38,208 nucleotides of DNA from Enterobacteria phage T3. The stretch lies in sequence record NC_003298.1. One strand, 5' to 3'. Under the pieces are notes generated by a model that saw nothing but the letters and a program-made list of their open reading frames with translations, was not told the origin of the DNA and did not search any database. This document shows, piece by piece, positions 2,976 to 37,594 of the stretch. How positions within the stretch are numbered: position 1 is the first letter of the stretch; each line of letters opens with the position of its first letter. Both the position numbers and the translations under genes were made by a program.

Positions 2976-5630
2976 ATGAACATCATCGAAAACATCGAAA
3001 AGAATGACTTCTCAGAAATCGAACTGGCTGCTATCCCGTTCAACACACTGGCTGACCACTACGGAAGCGCCTTGGCTAAAGAGCAGTTGGCTTTAGAACA
3101 TGAGTCTTATGAGCTAGGCGAGCGCCGCTTCCTCAAGATGCTTGAGCGTCAAGCGAAAGCTGGTGAGATTGCAGACAACGCAGCCGCTAAGCCGTTACTC
3201 GCTACGCTTCTCCCTAAGTTAACCACACGTATCGTCGAGTGGCTCGAAGAGTACGCATCGAAGAAAGGCCGCAAGCCTAGCGCATACGCACCGCTCCAGT
3301 TACTCAAGCCGGAGGCCTCCGCGTTTATCACCCTGAAAGTTATCCTTGCGTCACTAACCAGTACGAACATGACAACCATTCAGGCCGCTGCTGGTATGCT
3401 GGGGAAAGCCATTGAGGACGAGGCACGATTTGGGCGCATCCGTGACCTAGAAGCGAAGCACTTCAAGAAGCACGTTGAGGAACAGCTTAACAAGCGCCAC
3501 GGGCAAGTCTACAAGAAAGCATTTATGCAGGTGGTCGAGGCCGATATGATTGGTCGAGGTCTGCTTGGTGGCGAGGCGTGGTCTAGCTGGGATAAAGAAA
3601 CCACGATGCACGTAGGGATTCGCCTGATTGAAATGCTGATTGAATCCACGGGTCTGGTGGAATTACAGCGCCACAACGCAGGTAACGCAGGCTCTGACCA
3701 TGAGGCACTGCAACTGGCCCAAGAGTACGTGGACGTATTAGCGAAGCGTGCAGGCGCTCTGGCGGGTATCTCTCCGATGTTCCAGCCGTGTGTCGTACCG
3801 CCGAAACCTTGGGTAGCAATCACAGGGGGCGGCTATTGGGCTAACGGTCGCAGACCTTTGGCACTCGTTCGCACTCACTCTAAGAAGGGCTTGATGCGCT
3901 ACGAAGACGTTTACATGCCAGAAGTCTACAAGGCTGTGAACCTCGCGCAAAACACCGCATGGAAAATCAACAAGAAAGTTCTTGCTGTTGTCAATGAGAT
4001 TGTTAACTGGAAGAATTGCCCGGTAGCAGACATTCCATCGCTGGAGCGCCAAGAGTTACCGCCTAAGCCTGACGACATTGACACCAACGAGGCAGCGCTC
4101 AAGGAGTGGAAGAAAGCCGCTGCTGGTATCTATCGCTTGGACAAGGCACGAGTGTCTCGCCGTATCAGCTTAGAGTTCATGCTGGAGCAGGCCAACAAGT
4201 TCGCAAGTAAGAAAGCAATCTGGTTCCCTTACAACATGGACTGGCGCGGTCGTGTGTACGCTGTGCCGATGTTCAACCCGCAAGGCAACGACATGACGAA
4301 AGGTCTGCTGACCCTTGCTAAAGGCAAGCCAATCGGTGAGGAAGGTTTCTACTGGCTGAAAATCCACGGTGCGAACTGTGCGGGTGTTGATAAGGTTCCA
4401 TTCCCGGAGCGCATCGCGTTCATTGAGAAGCACGTAGACGACATTCTGGCTTGCGCTAAAGACCCAATCAATAACACTTGGTGGGCTGAGCAGGATTCAC
4501 CGTTCTGTTTCCTCGCGTTTTGCTTCGAGTATGCAGGCGTTACGCACCACGGTCTGAGCTACAATTGCTCTCTGCCGCTGGCGTTCGACGGGTCTTGCTC
4601 TGGTATCCAGCACTTCTCCGCGATGCTCCGCGATGAGGTAGGCGGTCGTGCGGTTAACCTGCTGCCAAGCGAAACCGTGCAGGACATTTACGGCATCGTT
4701 GCACAGAAAGTAAACGAGATTCTCAAACAGGATGCAATCAACGGCACGCCTAACGAGATGATTACCGTGACCGACAAGGACACCGGGGAAATCTCAGAGA
4801 AGCTCAAACTTGGAACCTCAACGCTGGCGCAACAGTGGCTGGCATATGGTGTAACCCGTAGCGTAACTAAACGTTCGGTCATGACGCTGGCTTACGGTTC
4901 CAAGGAGTTCGGCTTTCGTCAACAGGTATTGGATGACACCATTCAGCCTGCAATTGACAGCGGTAAGGGCTTGATGTTCACCCAACCGAACCAAGCGGCT
5001 GGCTATATGGCTAAGCTGATTTGGGATGCGGTAAGCGTGACCGTAGTTGCAGCGGTTGAGGCGATGAACTGGCTCAAATCTGCCGCTAAGCTGCTGGCTG
5101 CTGAGGTCAAGGACAAGAAGACCAAGGAGATTCTGCGCCACCGTTGCGCGGTTCACTGGACTACGCCGGACGGCTTCCCGGTCTGGCAGGAATACCGCAA
5201 GCCACTCCAGAAGCGTCTCGATATGATTTTCTTAGGGCAATTCCGTCTGCAACCGACGATTAATACCCTCAAGGATTCAGGCATTGACGCACACAAGCAG
5301 GAGTCTGGCATCGCTCCTAACTTTGTTCACTCACAGGACGGTAGCCACCTCCGCATGACAGTCGTTTATGCTCACGAGAAGTATGGCATTGAGTCCTTTG
5401 CGCTCATCCATGACAGCTTTGGGACTATCCCGGCAGACGCTGGTAAGCTCTTTAAGGCTGTGCGTGAAACGATGGTTATCACCTATGAGAACAACGATGT
5501 GCTGGCAGACTTCTACTCTCAGTTTGCCGACCAGCTACACGAGACCCAACTGGACAAGATGCCTCCGCTTCCGAAGAAAGGAAACCTGAACCTGCAAGAC
5601 ATTCTCAAGTCTGACTTTGCCTTTGCATAA
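2976..5630 (+). CDS. 1: Single-subunit DNA-dependent RNA polymerase, T3 specificity
   Basis: 884-aa ORF; specificity-loop segment KRLDMIFLGQFRLQ has Asp (codon 5220-5222) where T7 RNAP has Asn748; T7 numbering anchored by counting R746/R756/Q758 in the remembered T7 sequence. Confidence 0.97.
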   Translation: MNIIENIEKNDFSEIELAAIPFNTLADHYGSALAKEQLALEHESYELGERRFLKMLERQAKAGEIADNAAAKPLLATLLPKLTTRIVEWLEEYASKKGRKPSAYAPLQLLKPEASAFITLKVILASLTSTNMTTIQAAAGMLGKAIEDEARFGRIRDLEAKHFKKHVEEQLNKRHGQVYKKAFMQVVEADMIGRGLLGGEAWSSWDKETTMHVGIRLIEMLIESTGLVELQRHNAGNAGSDHEALQLAQEYVDVLAKRAGALAGISPMFQPCVVPPKPWVAITGGGYWANGRRPLALVRTHSKKGLMRYEDVYMPEVYKAVNLAQNTAWKINKKVLAVVNEIVNWKNCPVADIPSLERQELPPKPDDIDTNEAALKEWKKAAAGIYRLDKARVSRRISLEFMLEQANKFASKKAIWFPYNMDWRGRVYAVPMFNPQGNDMTKGLLTLAKGKPIGEEGFYWLKIHGANCAGVDKVPFPERIAFIEKHVDDILACAKDPINNTWWAEQDSPFCFLAFCFEYAGVTHHGLSYNCSLPLAFDGSCSGIQHFSAMLRDEVGGRAVNLLPSETVQDIYGIVAQKVNEILKQDAINGTPNEMITVTDKDTGEISEKLKLGTSTLAQQWLAYGVTRSVTKRSVMTLAYGSKEFGFRQQVLDDTIQPAIDSGKGLMFTQPNQAAGYMAKLIWDAVSVTVVAAVEAMNWLKSAAKLLAAEVKDKKTKEILRHRCAVHWTTPDGFPVWQEYRKPLQKRLDMIFLGQFRLQPTINTLKDSGIDAHKQESGIAPNFVHSQDGSHLRMTVVYAHEKYGIESFALIHDSFGTIPADAGKLFKAVRETMVITYENNDVLADFYSQFADQLHETQLDKMPPLPKKGNLNLQDILKSDFAFA

Positions 5631-5641
5631 CAAGCACTTAG

Positions 5642-5664
5642 CATTAACCCTCACTAACGGGAGA
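5642..5664 (+). promoter_or_regulatory. T3-type promoter, class II (phi1.05)
   Basis: CATTAACCCTCACTAACGGGAGA; C at -1. Confidence 0.85.
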
Positions 5665-5716
5665 CTACTTAAGGTCTCCCACTTTAAGACACTTTAGGTA
5701 CTAAGAGATTAAATTT

Positions 5717-5989
5717 ATGATTAACATTAAGACTTTCTTTAAGAACATCTTTAAGTTAAACCGTTTGACTTCCATTAAGTTCTACGCTTGGATGCCCGGT
5801 AGTGATGACCTCCGCAAGACTGAATTTAAGTTAGGCTTAGGGCCGTGCGGTAAGGTGGTCACGAAGTTGGAATGTTACTCAACGTCCTCCGGGATGGTCA
5901 TCTTCCAGACCACTGAGGACAACGAAATGAAATCCTTCTACTACCCGAAAGGTTCAACGTGTGGTCGTATCGAACGGACATACAGTTAA
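5717..5989 (+). CDS. Hypothetical protein (1.05-like) lying in an AT-rich region
   Basis: 90-aa ORF between two T3 promoters; weak SD; AT-rich DNA. Confidence 0.4.
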   Translation: MINIKTFFKNIFKLNRLTSIKFYAWMPGSDDLRKTEFKLGLGPCGKVVTKLECYSTSSGMVIFQTTEDNEMKSFYYPKGSTCGRIERTYS

Positions 5990-6006
5990 CCCTCACTAAC
6001 GGGAGA
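5984..6006 (+). promoter_or_regulatory. T3-type promoter, class II (phi1.1)
   Basis: AGTTAACCCTCACTAACGGGAGA. Confidence 0.85.
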
Positions 6007-6008
6007 GT

Positions 6009-6048
6009 TAAACTTAAGGTCATCACCAACGGTGGCCTTTGTGATTAA
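6009..6048 (+). promoter_or_regulatory. RNase III-type processing hairpin (R1.1-like)
   Basis: AAACTTAAGGTC ... GTGGCCTTTGTGATTAAC. Confidence 0.7.
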
Positions 6049-6081
6049 CTTTCAATACACATCAACATGAGGTAAGATACT

Positions 6082-6222
6082 ATGCGTACCAACTTTGAGA
6101 AATTTACCAAGCGCGATTCAGTGGTCAACGAGCAGGGCGAACAGTGGCAAGAGCGCCGTGACCGCATGAAGAAACGCCACAAGCAACAGCGCGGTAACTC
6201 ACAGAAACGGGAGTGGAACTGA
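6082..6222 (+). CDS. 1.1: Small basic protein gp1.1
   Basis: 46-aa ORF MRTNFEKFTKRD..., below the 60-aa cutoff of the ORF track; resembles T7 gp1.1 from memory. Confidence 0.7.
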   Translation: MRTNFEKFTKRDSVVNEQGEQWQERRDRMKKRHKQQRGNSQKREWN

Positions 6223-6500
6223 TGATGATGGGACGTATTTATAGCGGCAACCTGAACGATTACAAAGATGCGGTAGCGCGTCTACAGGAAGACCATGATG
6301 TGACCGTGAAGATGGAGTCATTCAGCTACGAAAACCCAGCGAAGATGTGCAGGTCATGCGGTGAGGTTCTCAGTGTGTTCACACGCTCCGGGCATCTGGT
6401 GGCATCCAGAACCTTCGAGCATAGCGACAGCGATGTACAAATCAACGCGCAGACTGCATGGCTCCGTAAGGTTCACAGCGAATTGAAACACTGGAAGTAA
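6222..6500 (+). CDS. 1.2: Inhibitor of host dGTP triphosphohydrolase (gp1.2)
   Basis: Homologous to T7 gp1.2 (MGRxYSGNL ... WLxxxxxxLKxWK); start is ambiguous among ATGs at 6222, 6225 and 6228; the ORF track extends it to a GTG at 6213. Confidence 0.8.
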   Translation: MMMGRIYSGNLNDYKDAVARLQEDHDVTVKMESFSYENPAKMCRSCGEVLSVFTRSGHLVASRTFEHSDSDVQINAQTAWLRKVHSELKHWK

Positions 6501-6521
6501 TAACCCTCACTAACAGGAGAA
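6499..6521 (+). promoter_or_regulatory. T3-type promoter, class II (phi1.3)
   Basis: AATAACCCTCACTAACAGGAGAA. Confidence 0.8.
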
Positions 6522-6522
6522 T

Positions 6523-6558
6523 CCTTAAGGTCACTTTAACGAGTGGCCTTCGTGATTC
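6523..6558 (+). promoter_or_regulatory. RNase III-type processing hairpin (R1.3-like)
   Basis: CCTTAAGGTC ... GTGGCCTTCGTGATT. Confidence 0.65.
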
Positions 6559-6594
6559 GAACTGATTAACTTTCAAACAATGAGGAACAACCGT

Positions 6595-7635
6595 ATGAAC
6601 ATCTTCAATACCAACCCATTCAAAGCTGTGTCATTCGTAGAGTCTGCCGTTAAGAAAGCGCTGGAGACCTCCGGCTATCTTATAGCGGATTGTAAATATG
6701 ATGGCGTGCGCGGTAACATTGTGGTTGATAACGTGGCTGAGGCTGCGTGGCTGTCCCGTGTGTCCAAGTTTATCCCGGCGCTGGAACACCTGAACGGTTT
6801 CGATAAGCGCTGGCAACAACTGCTGAACGATGACCGATGCATCTTCCCGGATGGCTTCATGCTGGATGGCGAACTGATGGTCAAAGGTGTAGACTTCAAC
6901 ACCGGGTCTGGCCTGCTGCGTACCAAGTGGGTGAAGCGTGACAACATGGGGTTCCACCTTACGAACGTCCCAACTAAGCTGACCCCGAAAGGCCGCGAAG
7001 TTATCGACGGTAAGTTTGAGTTCCACCTTGACCCGAAGCGCCTGAGCGTGCGACTCTACGCTGTCATGCCGATTCACATTGCGGAGTCTGGCGAGGACTA
7101 CGATGTACAGAACCTGCTGATGCCGTATCATGTGGAAGCCATGCGCTCTCTTCTGGTTGAATACTTCCCGGAAATCGAGTGGCTTATCGCTGAGACCTAC
7201 GAGGTCTACGATATGGATTCGCTGACTGAACTGTACGAAGAGAAGCGTGCCGAAGGTCACGAGGGTCTCATTGTGAAAGACCCGCAAGGCATCTACAAGC
7301 GAGGCAAGAAGTCTGGCTGGTGGAAGCTCAAGCCTGAGTGTGAAGCTGACGGTATCATTCAGGGTGTCAATTGGGGAACCGAAGGGTTAGCCAACGAGGG
7401 TAAAGTGATAGGCTTTAGTGTGCTTCTTGAGACTGGTCGTTTAGTAGACGCCAACAACATCTCTCGCGCATTGATGGACGAGTTCACATCCAACGTTAAA
7501 GCCCACGGTGAAGACTTCTACAATGGTTGGGCCTGTCAGGTCAACTACATGGAAGCGACCCCGGACGGCTCCCTGCGACACCCTAGCTTCGAGAAGTTCC
7601 GAGGAACTGAGGACAACCCTCAAGAGAAAATGTAA
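6595..7635 (+). CDS. 1.3: ATP-dependent DNA ligase
   Basis: 346 aa from the ATG at 6595 (SD TGAGG at 6581-6585); adenylation motif KYDGVR. Confidence 0.93.
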   Translation: MNIFNTNPFKAVSFVESAVKKALETSGYLIADCKYDGVRGNIVVDNVAEAAWLSRVSKFIPALEHLNGFDKRWQQLLNDDRCIFPDGFMLDGELMVKGVDFNTGSGLLRTKWVKRDNMGFHLTNVPTKLTPKGREVIDGKFEFHLDPKRLSVRLYAVMPIHIAESGEDYDVQNLLMPYHVEAMRSLLVEYFPEIEWLIAETYEVYDMDSLTELYEEKRAEGHEGLIVKDPQGIYKRGKKSGWWKLKPECEADGIIQGVNWGTEGLANEGKVIGFSVLLETGRLVDANNISRALMDEFTSNVKAHGEDFYNGWACQVNYMEATPDGSLRHPSFEKFRGTEDNPQEKM

Positions 7636-15167: not shown

Positions 15168-15473
15168 ATGGGAGGCGTTGCAACATTGCGGTTTCACAAG
15201 ATGCCTACCGGATGTATCGTGTGCGTTTCCCATAAGAGAAACCAAGATGGATACTTCCGGTATAGCATAGGGTCTTCTCGTAAAGGTGAGAAGAAACACT
15301 TTATGTTTCATCGATGGGTGTGGGAACAACATAAAGGTCCGATACCAGATGGTTACGAGATAGACCACATATGTCTTAATAGAGGTTGTTGTAACGTAGA
15401 GCACCTACAGTGTATACCAAAGCGAGACCACATTATTAAGACAAACAAAGAGCGTAAACTTGTCAAGAAATAA
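15168..15473 (+). CDS. 5.3: HNH endonuclease (homing endonuclease-like)
   Basis: 101 aa from the ATG at 15168 (SD GGAGG); HNH motif ...EIDHICLNRGCCNVEHLQCIPKRDH... Confidence 0.8.
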   Translation: MGGVATLRFHKMPTGCIVCVSHKRNQDGYFRYSIGSSRKGEKKHFMFHRWVWEQHKGPIPDGYEIDHICLNRGCCNVEHLQCIPKRDHIIKTNKERKLVKK

Positions 15474-15486
15474 AGGAGAAATTATT

Positions 15487-15783
15487 ATGGCTATCACTAA
15501 GAAATTTAAAGTGTCCTTTGATGTTACCCTTAAGCTGGACAGCGAGACCGAAGAACTGATGCGAGAAAAGATTCTGGACTTAGCGCATCGTGCTGGTGCT
15601 GGTGAGGAGATTACTCCTATGGACCGAGAGTTGCTCGTTCAGGCCCTAACACGCGGTCCAGACGGTGCTGCTGCATTTGCTGTACGCCAAGGTATCCGTA
15701 ATGCTGTCAAGGAGATGTTCGAAGAGACTAGTGATAAATCACTGTTAAAACTCTCTCCTGCAACTGTACGGGAGGTGTTCTGA
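15487..15783 (+). CDS. 5.5: gp5.5 (H-NS-binding protein in T7)
   Basis: 98 aa from the ATG at 15487 preceded by AAGGAG. Confidence 0.7.
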   Translation: MAITKKFKVSFDVTLKLDSETEELMREKILDLAHRAGAGEEITPMDRELLVQALTRGPDGAAAFAVRQGIRNAVKEMFEETSDKSLLKLSPATVREVF

Positions 15784-17141: not shown

Positions 17142-17199
17142 AAACTCAAGGCTCTCTACAATTAACCCTCACTAAAGGGAAGAGGGAGCCTTTATGATT
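17142..17199 (+). promoter_or_regulatory. RNase III-type hairpin (R6.5-like) with the phi6.5 promoter in its loop
   Basis: AAACTCAAGGCTCTC ... GAGGGAGCCTTTATGATTA encloses AATTAACCCTCACTAAAGGGAAG (17160-17182). Confidence 0.75.
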
Positions 17200-17233
17200 A
17201 TTACTTTAAGACTTAACCCTAAGAGGTGAAATT

Positions 17234-17479
17234 ATGTTACAACCAATTAATCATGTTTTAACTCATCCCGATGATATTCCTAGTATGCCTCGTGCAGCTA
17301 AAGAGTATCTACAGGTGCGCTTCAATCAGGCTTATGTGATGGAGTCCGGGGAGTACCGTGCGCTCCGCGCTGCTGGATACTCTGAGTCTTTCATTGCGGG
17401 TGTGATGCATGGTCTGTACCTTGCCTCTCGTACACTTGATGAGATTGAGGTGCGTAAAGAGCAACTGAGACAGGAGTAA
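17234..17479 (+). CDS. 6.5: gp6.5
   Basis: 81-aa ORF with SD. Confidence 0.7.
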   Translation: MLQPINHVLTHPDDIPSMPRAAKEYLQVRFNQAYVMESGEYRALRAAGYSESFIAGVMHGLYLASRTLDEIEVRKEQLRQE

Positions 17480-37454: not shown

Positions 37455-37594
37455 GAGGGGACTTAAAGCTACTATATAGGTTAGTCATTCAGGTTATGCA
37501 ATGACCCTTTATGCACTTTAAGTCTACCTCTGTGATTGGTGATATTATCATTGTATAATCACCCTACCTTAGAGCAACTGAAAGGAGGTGGCTC

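Follow-up and report, generated by a model that had tools for sequence, protein, structure and literature searches.

The region immediately to the right of the RNA polymerase gene of Enterobacteria phage T3 raises the question of whether two phage promoters and the AT-rich DNA between them make up a primary replication origin of the T7 type and, if so, which parts of the region do the work. This assignment had been proposed from the letters of record NC_003298.1, without database searches, in what we call the sequence-only reading. The window refers to the whole stretch of 38,208 nucleotides that was analysed, and coordinates are window positions unless otherwise stated. The 1-kb stretch 5400-6400 is 100% identical to X17255, KC960671, NC_047864 and the T7M record, and shares 96-98% identity with ~90 other Teetrevirus genomes. 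This perfect match to the T3 records identifies the window as the whole genome of a long-studied model phage.

The X05031 record, entitled 'Bacteriophage T3 gene region 1-2.5 with primary origin of replication', annotates the promoter of gene 1.05 (5642-5657), a transcription start (5659), the two arms of an inverted repeat A/A' (5659-5665 and 5674-5680), the primary origin of replication (5682-5758), a primase binding site (5688-5692), a ribosome-binding site (5702-5707), the coding sequence of gp1.05 (5717-5989), the promoter of gene 1.1 (5981-5999) and an RNase III stem-loop (6003-6053). The source of this annotation is Schmitt et al. 1987. The T7M record gives the same origin span (5682-5758), the X17255 and phiYeO3-12 records carry a rep_origin feature at 5658-5799 in window coordinates, and in the phiSG-JL2 record the homologous position is labelled 'putative replication origin'. 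A phrase search of the literature for the T3 origin returned no match. The call of a primary origin in T3 is correct and already known, from GenBank and the literature since 1987. The annotation in X05031, T7M, X17255 and phiYeO3-12, together with homology to the T7 promoter phi1.1B, bears out the proposal of a candidate primary origin of the T7 type. We consider it very probable, from the sequence features and the analogy with T7, that the region is the T3 primary origin, with a putative working unit that consists of phi1.05 and the AT-rich DNA at 5682-5758 and extends to ~5780.

Promoters, hairpin and AT-rich element

A motif search of the whole window revealed TTAACCCTCACTAACGGGAGA at 5644-5664 and 5986-6006 with 0 mismatches, and the window contains 13 matches to the promoter motif TTAACCCTCACTAAMGGGAGA, every one of them on the + strand, compared to 0 in 100 shuffles. 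The corresponding 23-bp spans, 5642-5664 and 5984-6006, run from -17 to +6 with +1 at 5659 and 6001, respectively, and both match features in four GenBank records (X05031, X17255, T7M and phiYeO3-12). The perfect motif matches and the annotated promoter features confirm the two phage promoters that had been read at these positions. The upstream promoter phi1.05 (5642-5664, + strand) starts transcription at G5659, as indicated by the motif and by the annotated promoter and start-site features, and is the sole promoter transcribing into the AT-rich element. The downstream promoter phi1.1 (5984-6006, + strand, +1 at 6001) extends over the end of gene 1.05 and lies 226 bp downstream of the AT-rich core. 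It is placed 342 bp further along than phi1.05, which it repeats exactly, in direct orientation, over 21 bp.

The two promoters are used by the product of gene 1, the T3 RNA polymerase of 884 aa, which is encoded at 2976..5630 on the + strand according to the ORF list and the T7M, phiYeO3-12 and T3 records. The end of gene 1 at 5630 agrees with the earlier placement of the promoters and the AT-rich segment just downstream of the polymerase gene. The downstream neighbor is gene 1.1 (46 aa, 6082..6222, + strand), found in the ORF list and in the T7M, X17255 and phiYeO3-12 records. At the start of the phi1.1 transcript sits the annotated R1.1 stem-loop (6003..6053, + strand), an RNase III processing site with a predicted RNA fold of -20.7 kcal/mol (z = -3.9). 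Among the 15 relatives, 6007-6053 in R1.1 is the most variable part of the region, with 11 variable sites out of 47. These changes affect two parts of the predicted fold, namely the apical loop at 6025-6030 and the region of the internal loop at 6011-6015, the paired stems being constant; no compensatory pair changes were seen in R1.1 among the 15 relatives, and a compensatory interpretation of the variation was dropped. A scan of 5400-6300 for sigma-70 promoters and terminators gave nothing relevant above the shuffled expectation, and an Rfam search of 5000-7000 gave no match at E <= 1.

The AT-rich segment is the most extreme of the genome. Its stretch 5699-5758 has a GC fraction of 0.20 (z = -4.9), compared to 0.26 for 5681-5780, and the lowest-GC windows of 60, 80 and 100 bp in the 38,208-bp genome all lie within 5681-5780. 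The same windows form the least stable duplex of the genome, as calculated by nearest-neighbor duplex energy. The AT-rich segment of the sequence-only reading is therefore real, but its bounds are ~5681-5780, starting ~20 bp before the 'about 5700-5800' originally given. Its core (5682..5758, unstranded, GC 0.23), defined by the rep_origin features, the genome-lowest GC and stability and the homology to T7, starts 23 nt after the phi1.05 transcription start. Much of the DNA at 5681-5760 is built of CTTTAAG/ACTTTAAG-like repeats (5681, 5691 and 5729-5755), words similar to the 'epsilon' translational enhancer motif found in T7 leaders.

Two smaller elements accompany the core. The inverted repeat A/A' (GGGAGAC...GTCTCCC, 5659..5680, + strand) is predicted to form a hairpin where the phi1.05 transcript begins, with an RNA fold centroid of -14.6 kcal/mol. 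A predicted primase recognition pentamer, 5'-GTGTC-3', is located at 5688..5692 on the - strand (top strand GACAC); it is the only (G/T)(G/T)GTC site inside the AT-rich core and is identical in all 15 relatives. In T7, the 61-bp A/T-rich cluster carries a GGGTC site, which is reported to be unused for priming (PMC12839067); for this reason the T3 pentamer may be irrelevant to function.

Alignment of 15 Teetrevirus sequences over 5211-6501 showed how strongly this DNA is conserved. Only two of the 86 sites in the non-coding stretch 5631-5716 are variable, compared to 42 of the 139 third positions of gene 1 codons (Fisher p = 2.6e-8), and this scarcity of variable sites argues that the non-coding DNA is under strong constraint. 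The promoter and hairpin (5631-5681) have no base substitution at all, phi1.05 included, and two records differ by a 1-bp indel in phi1.05; the hairpin is identical in 14 of the 15 relatives, the remaining one, Klebsiella phage 6998 (Kp6998), being without its first G. The two indel variants are Kp6998 and phiKp_31 (loci L015 and L013). The former is missing the +1 G of phi1.05 (5659) and the latter has a 1-bp insertion in the promoter after 5647, either of which might be a sequencing error or a real variant. Origin activity, promoter function and translation signals would each add to the constraint on the non-coding DNA, and the fact that the AT-rich DNA doubles as the 5' leader and translation start of gene 1.05 could explain part of the conservation.

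Gene 1.05 and its overlap with the origin

The open reading frame at 5717-5989 had been described as possibly fortuitous or of dual use. It corresponds to gene 1.05 (90 aa, 5717..5989, + strand), which is preceded by a putative ribosome-binding site, TAAGAG (5702..5707, + strand), supported by X05031 and the sequence, and has its codons 1-14 (5717-5758) inside the annotated origin. The encoded gp1.05 is the named founder of the Pfam family PF25755 (Phage_T3_1_05) and scores 94.8 bits with its profile, well above the curated gathering threshold of 27 (E = 3e-27), with residues 16-89 aligned to profile positions 1-73 of 73; it also matches PHROG 6379. A word-indexed protein search with gp1.05 returned one cluster and an IMG/VR scan a single locus, and the family became visible by a full HMMER scan of 1.84 billion representatives, with 131 distant cluster representatives; relatives were also collected one by one from a phage collection. 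The members fall into two types: in those of ~76-100 aa the domain stands alone, and in those of ~160-200 aa it is C-terminal. In the family alignment the domain begins at about T3 residue 17, and G40, C44, G45, Q64 and F74 are invariant. The gp1.05 of Yersinia phage AP5 (L016) has tryptophan at two glycines (G42W and G59W), of which G42 is nearly invariant across the family; these changes may be sequencing errors or real variants.

The 90-codon frame is intact in 15 of the 15 relatives, with a dN/dS of 0.34 overall and 0.31 for codons 15-90, compared to 0.04 for gene 1, 0.14 for gene 1.1 and 0.21 for gene 1.2. The AlphaFold2 model of gp1.05 has a mean pLDDT of 88.6, the first 10 residues being poorly predicted (58), and presents a six-stranded small β-barrel at residues 17-89. 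Fold search with this model gave small-barrel matches, all of them weak, and we therefore assign no function to gp1.05. Judged from its sequence record, gene 1.05 is a genuine small protein-coding gene. Its family membership in PF25755, the dN/dS ratio and the intact frame rule out a fortuitous frame.

The dual use, by contrast, holds for codons 1-14 only. For these codons dN/dS is ~1 and none of the 14 third positions varies, a pattern that, small as the numbers are, fits constraint at the DNA level rather than the protein level. The comparison of conservation in the frame and in the DNA, proposed earlier as a check, thus separates a gene conserved as protein from about residue 17 and a 14-codon start conserved in a DNA-like manner. 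As the domain starts at about residue 17, the dual use is real but limited to a short, non-conserved N-terminal leader. The notion that a conserved reading frame refutes the origin was rejected, since the conserved domain begins past the end of the annotated origin; because only the 14 non-conserved codons overlap the origin, conservation at the protein level is no argument against it.

Homology with T7 and other promoter sites in T3

In T7, phi1.1A and phi1.1B are the primary origins, a phage promoter is essential in every origin, and phiOR, phi6.5 and others serve as secondary origins that are used once the primary origins are deleted (PMC8373140). A transcription-primed origin of the T7 type has a promoter directed into AT-rich DNA, an easily melted AT-rich segment of ~60-80 bp on its 3' side, a location right of gene 1 at ~15% of the genome, a primase pentamer in the AT-rich cluster, sequence homology to the T7 origin, and two tandem promoters that both lie upstream of the AT-rich region. 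T3 has phi1.05 on the + strand directed into the AT-rich element and the melting-prone segment at 5682-5758. Like the T7 primary origin, this element immediately follows the gene for RNA polymerase, 14.9% of the way along the genome (5682/38208), its promoter is followed within ~20 nt by the most AT-rich DNA, and this DNA is also the leader of the next gene, which in T7 is gene 1.1. The pentamer is likewise in place, the T3 top strand GACAC being aligned with GACCC in T7, the complement of GGGTC.

Comparison by blastn revealed a crossed homology between the two phages. T7 5914-5993, with phi1.1B and the AT-rich region, matches T3 5650-5732, with phi1.05 and the AT-rich element (E = 8e-8; 73% identity over 86 columns), whereas T7 5839-5898, with phi1.1A and R1.1, matches T3 5992-6053, with phi1.1 and R1.1 (E = 1e-8). 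The order in T7 is phi1.1A (5848), R1.1, phi1.1B (5923), the AT-rich region and gene 1.1 at 6007 (T7 coordinates), compared to phi1.05, the hairpin, the AT-rich element, gene 1.05, phi1.1, R1.1 and gene 1.1 in T3. The origin module of T3 is therefore homologous to that of T7, with the promoter modules swapped and gene 1.05 placed between them.

Three differences follow the comparison through. Both promoters are upstream of the AT-rich region in T7, whereas only phi1.05 is in T3, so that the tandem upstream pair is absent from T3; gene 1.05 sits between the modules in T3, whereas T7 has no such gene; and the T3 origin overlaps 14 codons of a gene. The claim that two promoters bracketing an AT-rich stretch reproduce the T7 architecture does not hold, as phi1.1 is downstream of the element and is the homologue of T7 phi1.1A with R1.1. 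The layout with a single upstream promoter departs from that of T7 but need not break the mechanism.

Among the annotated relatives, phiYeO3-12 (98.7% identity) and T7M (100%) have the same element with a rep_origin feature. The phiSG-JL2 locus keeps the promoter, the hairpin and the AT-rich leader, but it is without the primase-pentamer segment, its origin is labelled 'putative', and its gene 1.05 encodes 169 aa with an added N-terminus of a membrane helix and a coiled-coil. In this protein (L006 399-908) the hydrophobic N-terminal helix and the coiled-coil precede the C-terminal domain, and the long form has a weak match to an Rz-like spanin family (phrog_89, E = 5e-4).

AT-rich DNA is found after most promoters of T3. 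Of the 13 matches to the promoter motif, 11 have within 120 nt downstream a 60-mer whose GC content is below the 3rd percentile for the genome; that of phi1.05 is the most extreme (percentile 0.01), followed by those of phiOL (0.06) and phi6.5 (0.18), which come near it with GC fractions of 0.22 and 0.25, respectively. Of the 100-bp windows, the eight richest in AT include six that directly follow a phage promoter. The pairing of a promoter with AT-rich DNA is thus widespread in T3; the sequence alone ranks the phi1.05 site first and cannot prove its primary status. The next most AT-rich 100-bp windows include 377-476, 17187-17286 and 37463-37562, after the phiOL, phi6.5 and phiOR matches at 368, 17162 and 37434. 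The third most AT-rich window, 15434-15533 (GC 0.29), has no T3 promoter match nearby and resembles an intergenic leader with a strong ribosome-binding site (AAGGAGAAATTATTATG).

The secondary origins of T7, phiOR and phi6.5, share with the T3 sites the combination of a phage promoter and AT-rich DNA. Their T3 counterparts, the AT-rich stretches after phiOL (~396), phi6.5 (17187) and phiOR (37463), lie at other genome positions, are a little less AT-rich than the element at phi1.05, and carry no origin annotation in the T3 records examined. Because phi6.5 and phiOR are named secondary origins in T7, the T3 sites after phiOL, phi6.5 and phiOR are likely secondary origins as well.

Such sites give rise to the first alternative, that the AT-rich stretch is nothing but the untranslated leader and translation start of gene 1.05, one more of the AT-rich leaders found after most T3 promoters and of no particular importance for replication, which would start mainly elsewhere, from phiOL, phi6.5 or phiOR, for instance. 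The unusually AT-rich 60-mers after most promoter matches would accommodate it, as would the ribosome-binding site and the start codon of a real gene within the element and the existence of related phages that live without it. However, the element contains the most extreme AT-rich window of the genome, both its sequence and its position make it a homologue of the AT-rich region that follows phi1.1B in T7, and T3 specialists annotated a primary origin here. In T7, where phi1.1A and phi1.1B bear that name, in vitro initiation at the plasmid-borne primary origin with purified T7 enzymes has been reported (PMC8373140). The two roles are, in addition, compatible, the AT-rich region of the T7 origin being a gene leader too. 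We regard a leader without a primary origin as very improbable.

Natural variants of the locus and a model for initiation

At least eight Teetrevirus records, one of which is a RefSeq duplicate, have a deletion form of the locus. It occurs in Leclercia phages 10164-302 and 10164RH, Erwinia phage ZCEA1 and Klebsiella phages mtp14, mtp1, KLB7 and KLB12, and the more divergent Sekstaphage-1 has the same form. Genes 1 and 1.1 are separated by 109 bp in these phages, compared to 451 bp in T3, and both the AT-rich origin and gene 1.05 are absent. What remains is one hybrid promoter, which joins the upstream flank of phi1.05 to the downstream flank of phi1.1 and R1.1, as seen at loci L007 371-520 and L008 370-518. 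The missing 342 bp equal the spacing of the 21-bp exact promoter repeats, as if the deletion form had arisen by recombination between them. As at least eight related records are without the AT-rich element and gene 1.05, the element is dispensable in nature. Like T7 deletion mutants (PMC8373140), phages without it presumably start replication at other places where a promoter is followed by AT-rich DNA.

The locus varies in other ways as well. In phiSG-JL2, SH1, SH2 and SM9-3Y the slot is occupied by a long form of gene 1.05, whose product (164-169 aa where stated) has a C-terminal domain homologous to that of T3, and Serratia phage SALSA (L021 259-705) carries an inserted HNH endonuclease gene that separates gene 1 from phi1.05. 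The locus seems to be an insertion hotspot. Taken together, the deletion, long and insertion forms indicate that the origin and gene 1.05 behave as an optional cassette in a variable locus.

It could be argued from these forms that the AT-rich element, gene 1.05 and phi1.1 are merely such a cassette, gained and lost by recombination, and that any origin activity is a by-product which was not selected. The exact 21-bp repeats 342 bp apart, the records that lack exactly one repeat unit, the different and longer gene 1.05 in the same slot of other relatives, the endonuclease gene inserted alongside in one relative and the module order that differs between T3 and T7 are all in keeping with mobility of this kind. 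A mobile cassette is nevertheless compatible with an origin and does not replace it, and the non-coding part shows much stronger conservation than neutral sites do. Moreover, T7 retains a homologue even though the modules are rearranged, and this points to a selected function. An unselected by-product is very improbable.

For the preferred reading, a primary origin formed by phi1.05 and the AT-rich element, we propose a mechanism modelled on T7. T3 RNA polymerase would start at G5659 and make an RNA whose first 22 nt could fold into a stable hairpin, and transcription would continue rightward into the AT-rich DNA. The short transcript would stay paired, or pair again, with its template in the AT-rich DNA, and the phage DNA polymerase would extend it to give the first rightward leading strand. 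On the displaced strand, the gene 4 helicase-primase would then load and establish the leftward fork. The same DNA also serves as the 5' leader, the likely ribosome-binding site and the first 14 codons of gene 1.05. The main role of the promoter phi1.1 is to drive genes 1.1 and 1.2, by way of the RNase III site R1.1; given this role and its position downstream of the AT-rich element, it is probably outside the initiation unit.

As a discovery, the T3 primary origin is of small value, its T7 counterpart being a textbook system, and what the case illustrates is that a real replication origin was recognized by the sequence-only reading from raw sequence. The present analysis adds three minor refinements, namely the swapped module order relative to T7, the small overlap between gene and origin, and the natural loss of the cassette; some of these may already be in print. 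The natural deletion isolates provide ready material for studying how phages of the T7 group replicate without the primary origin.
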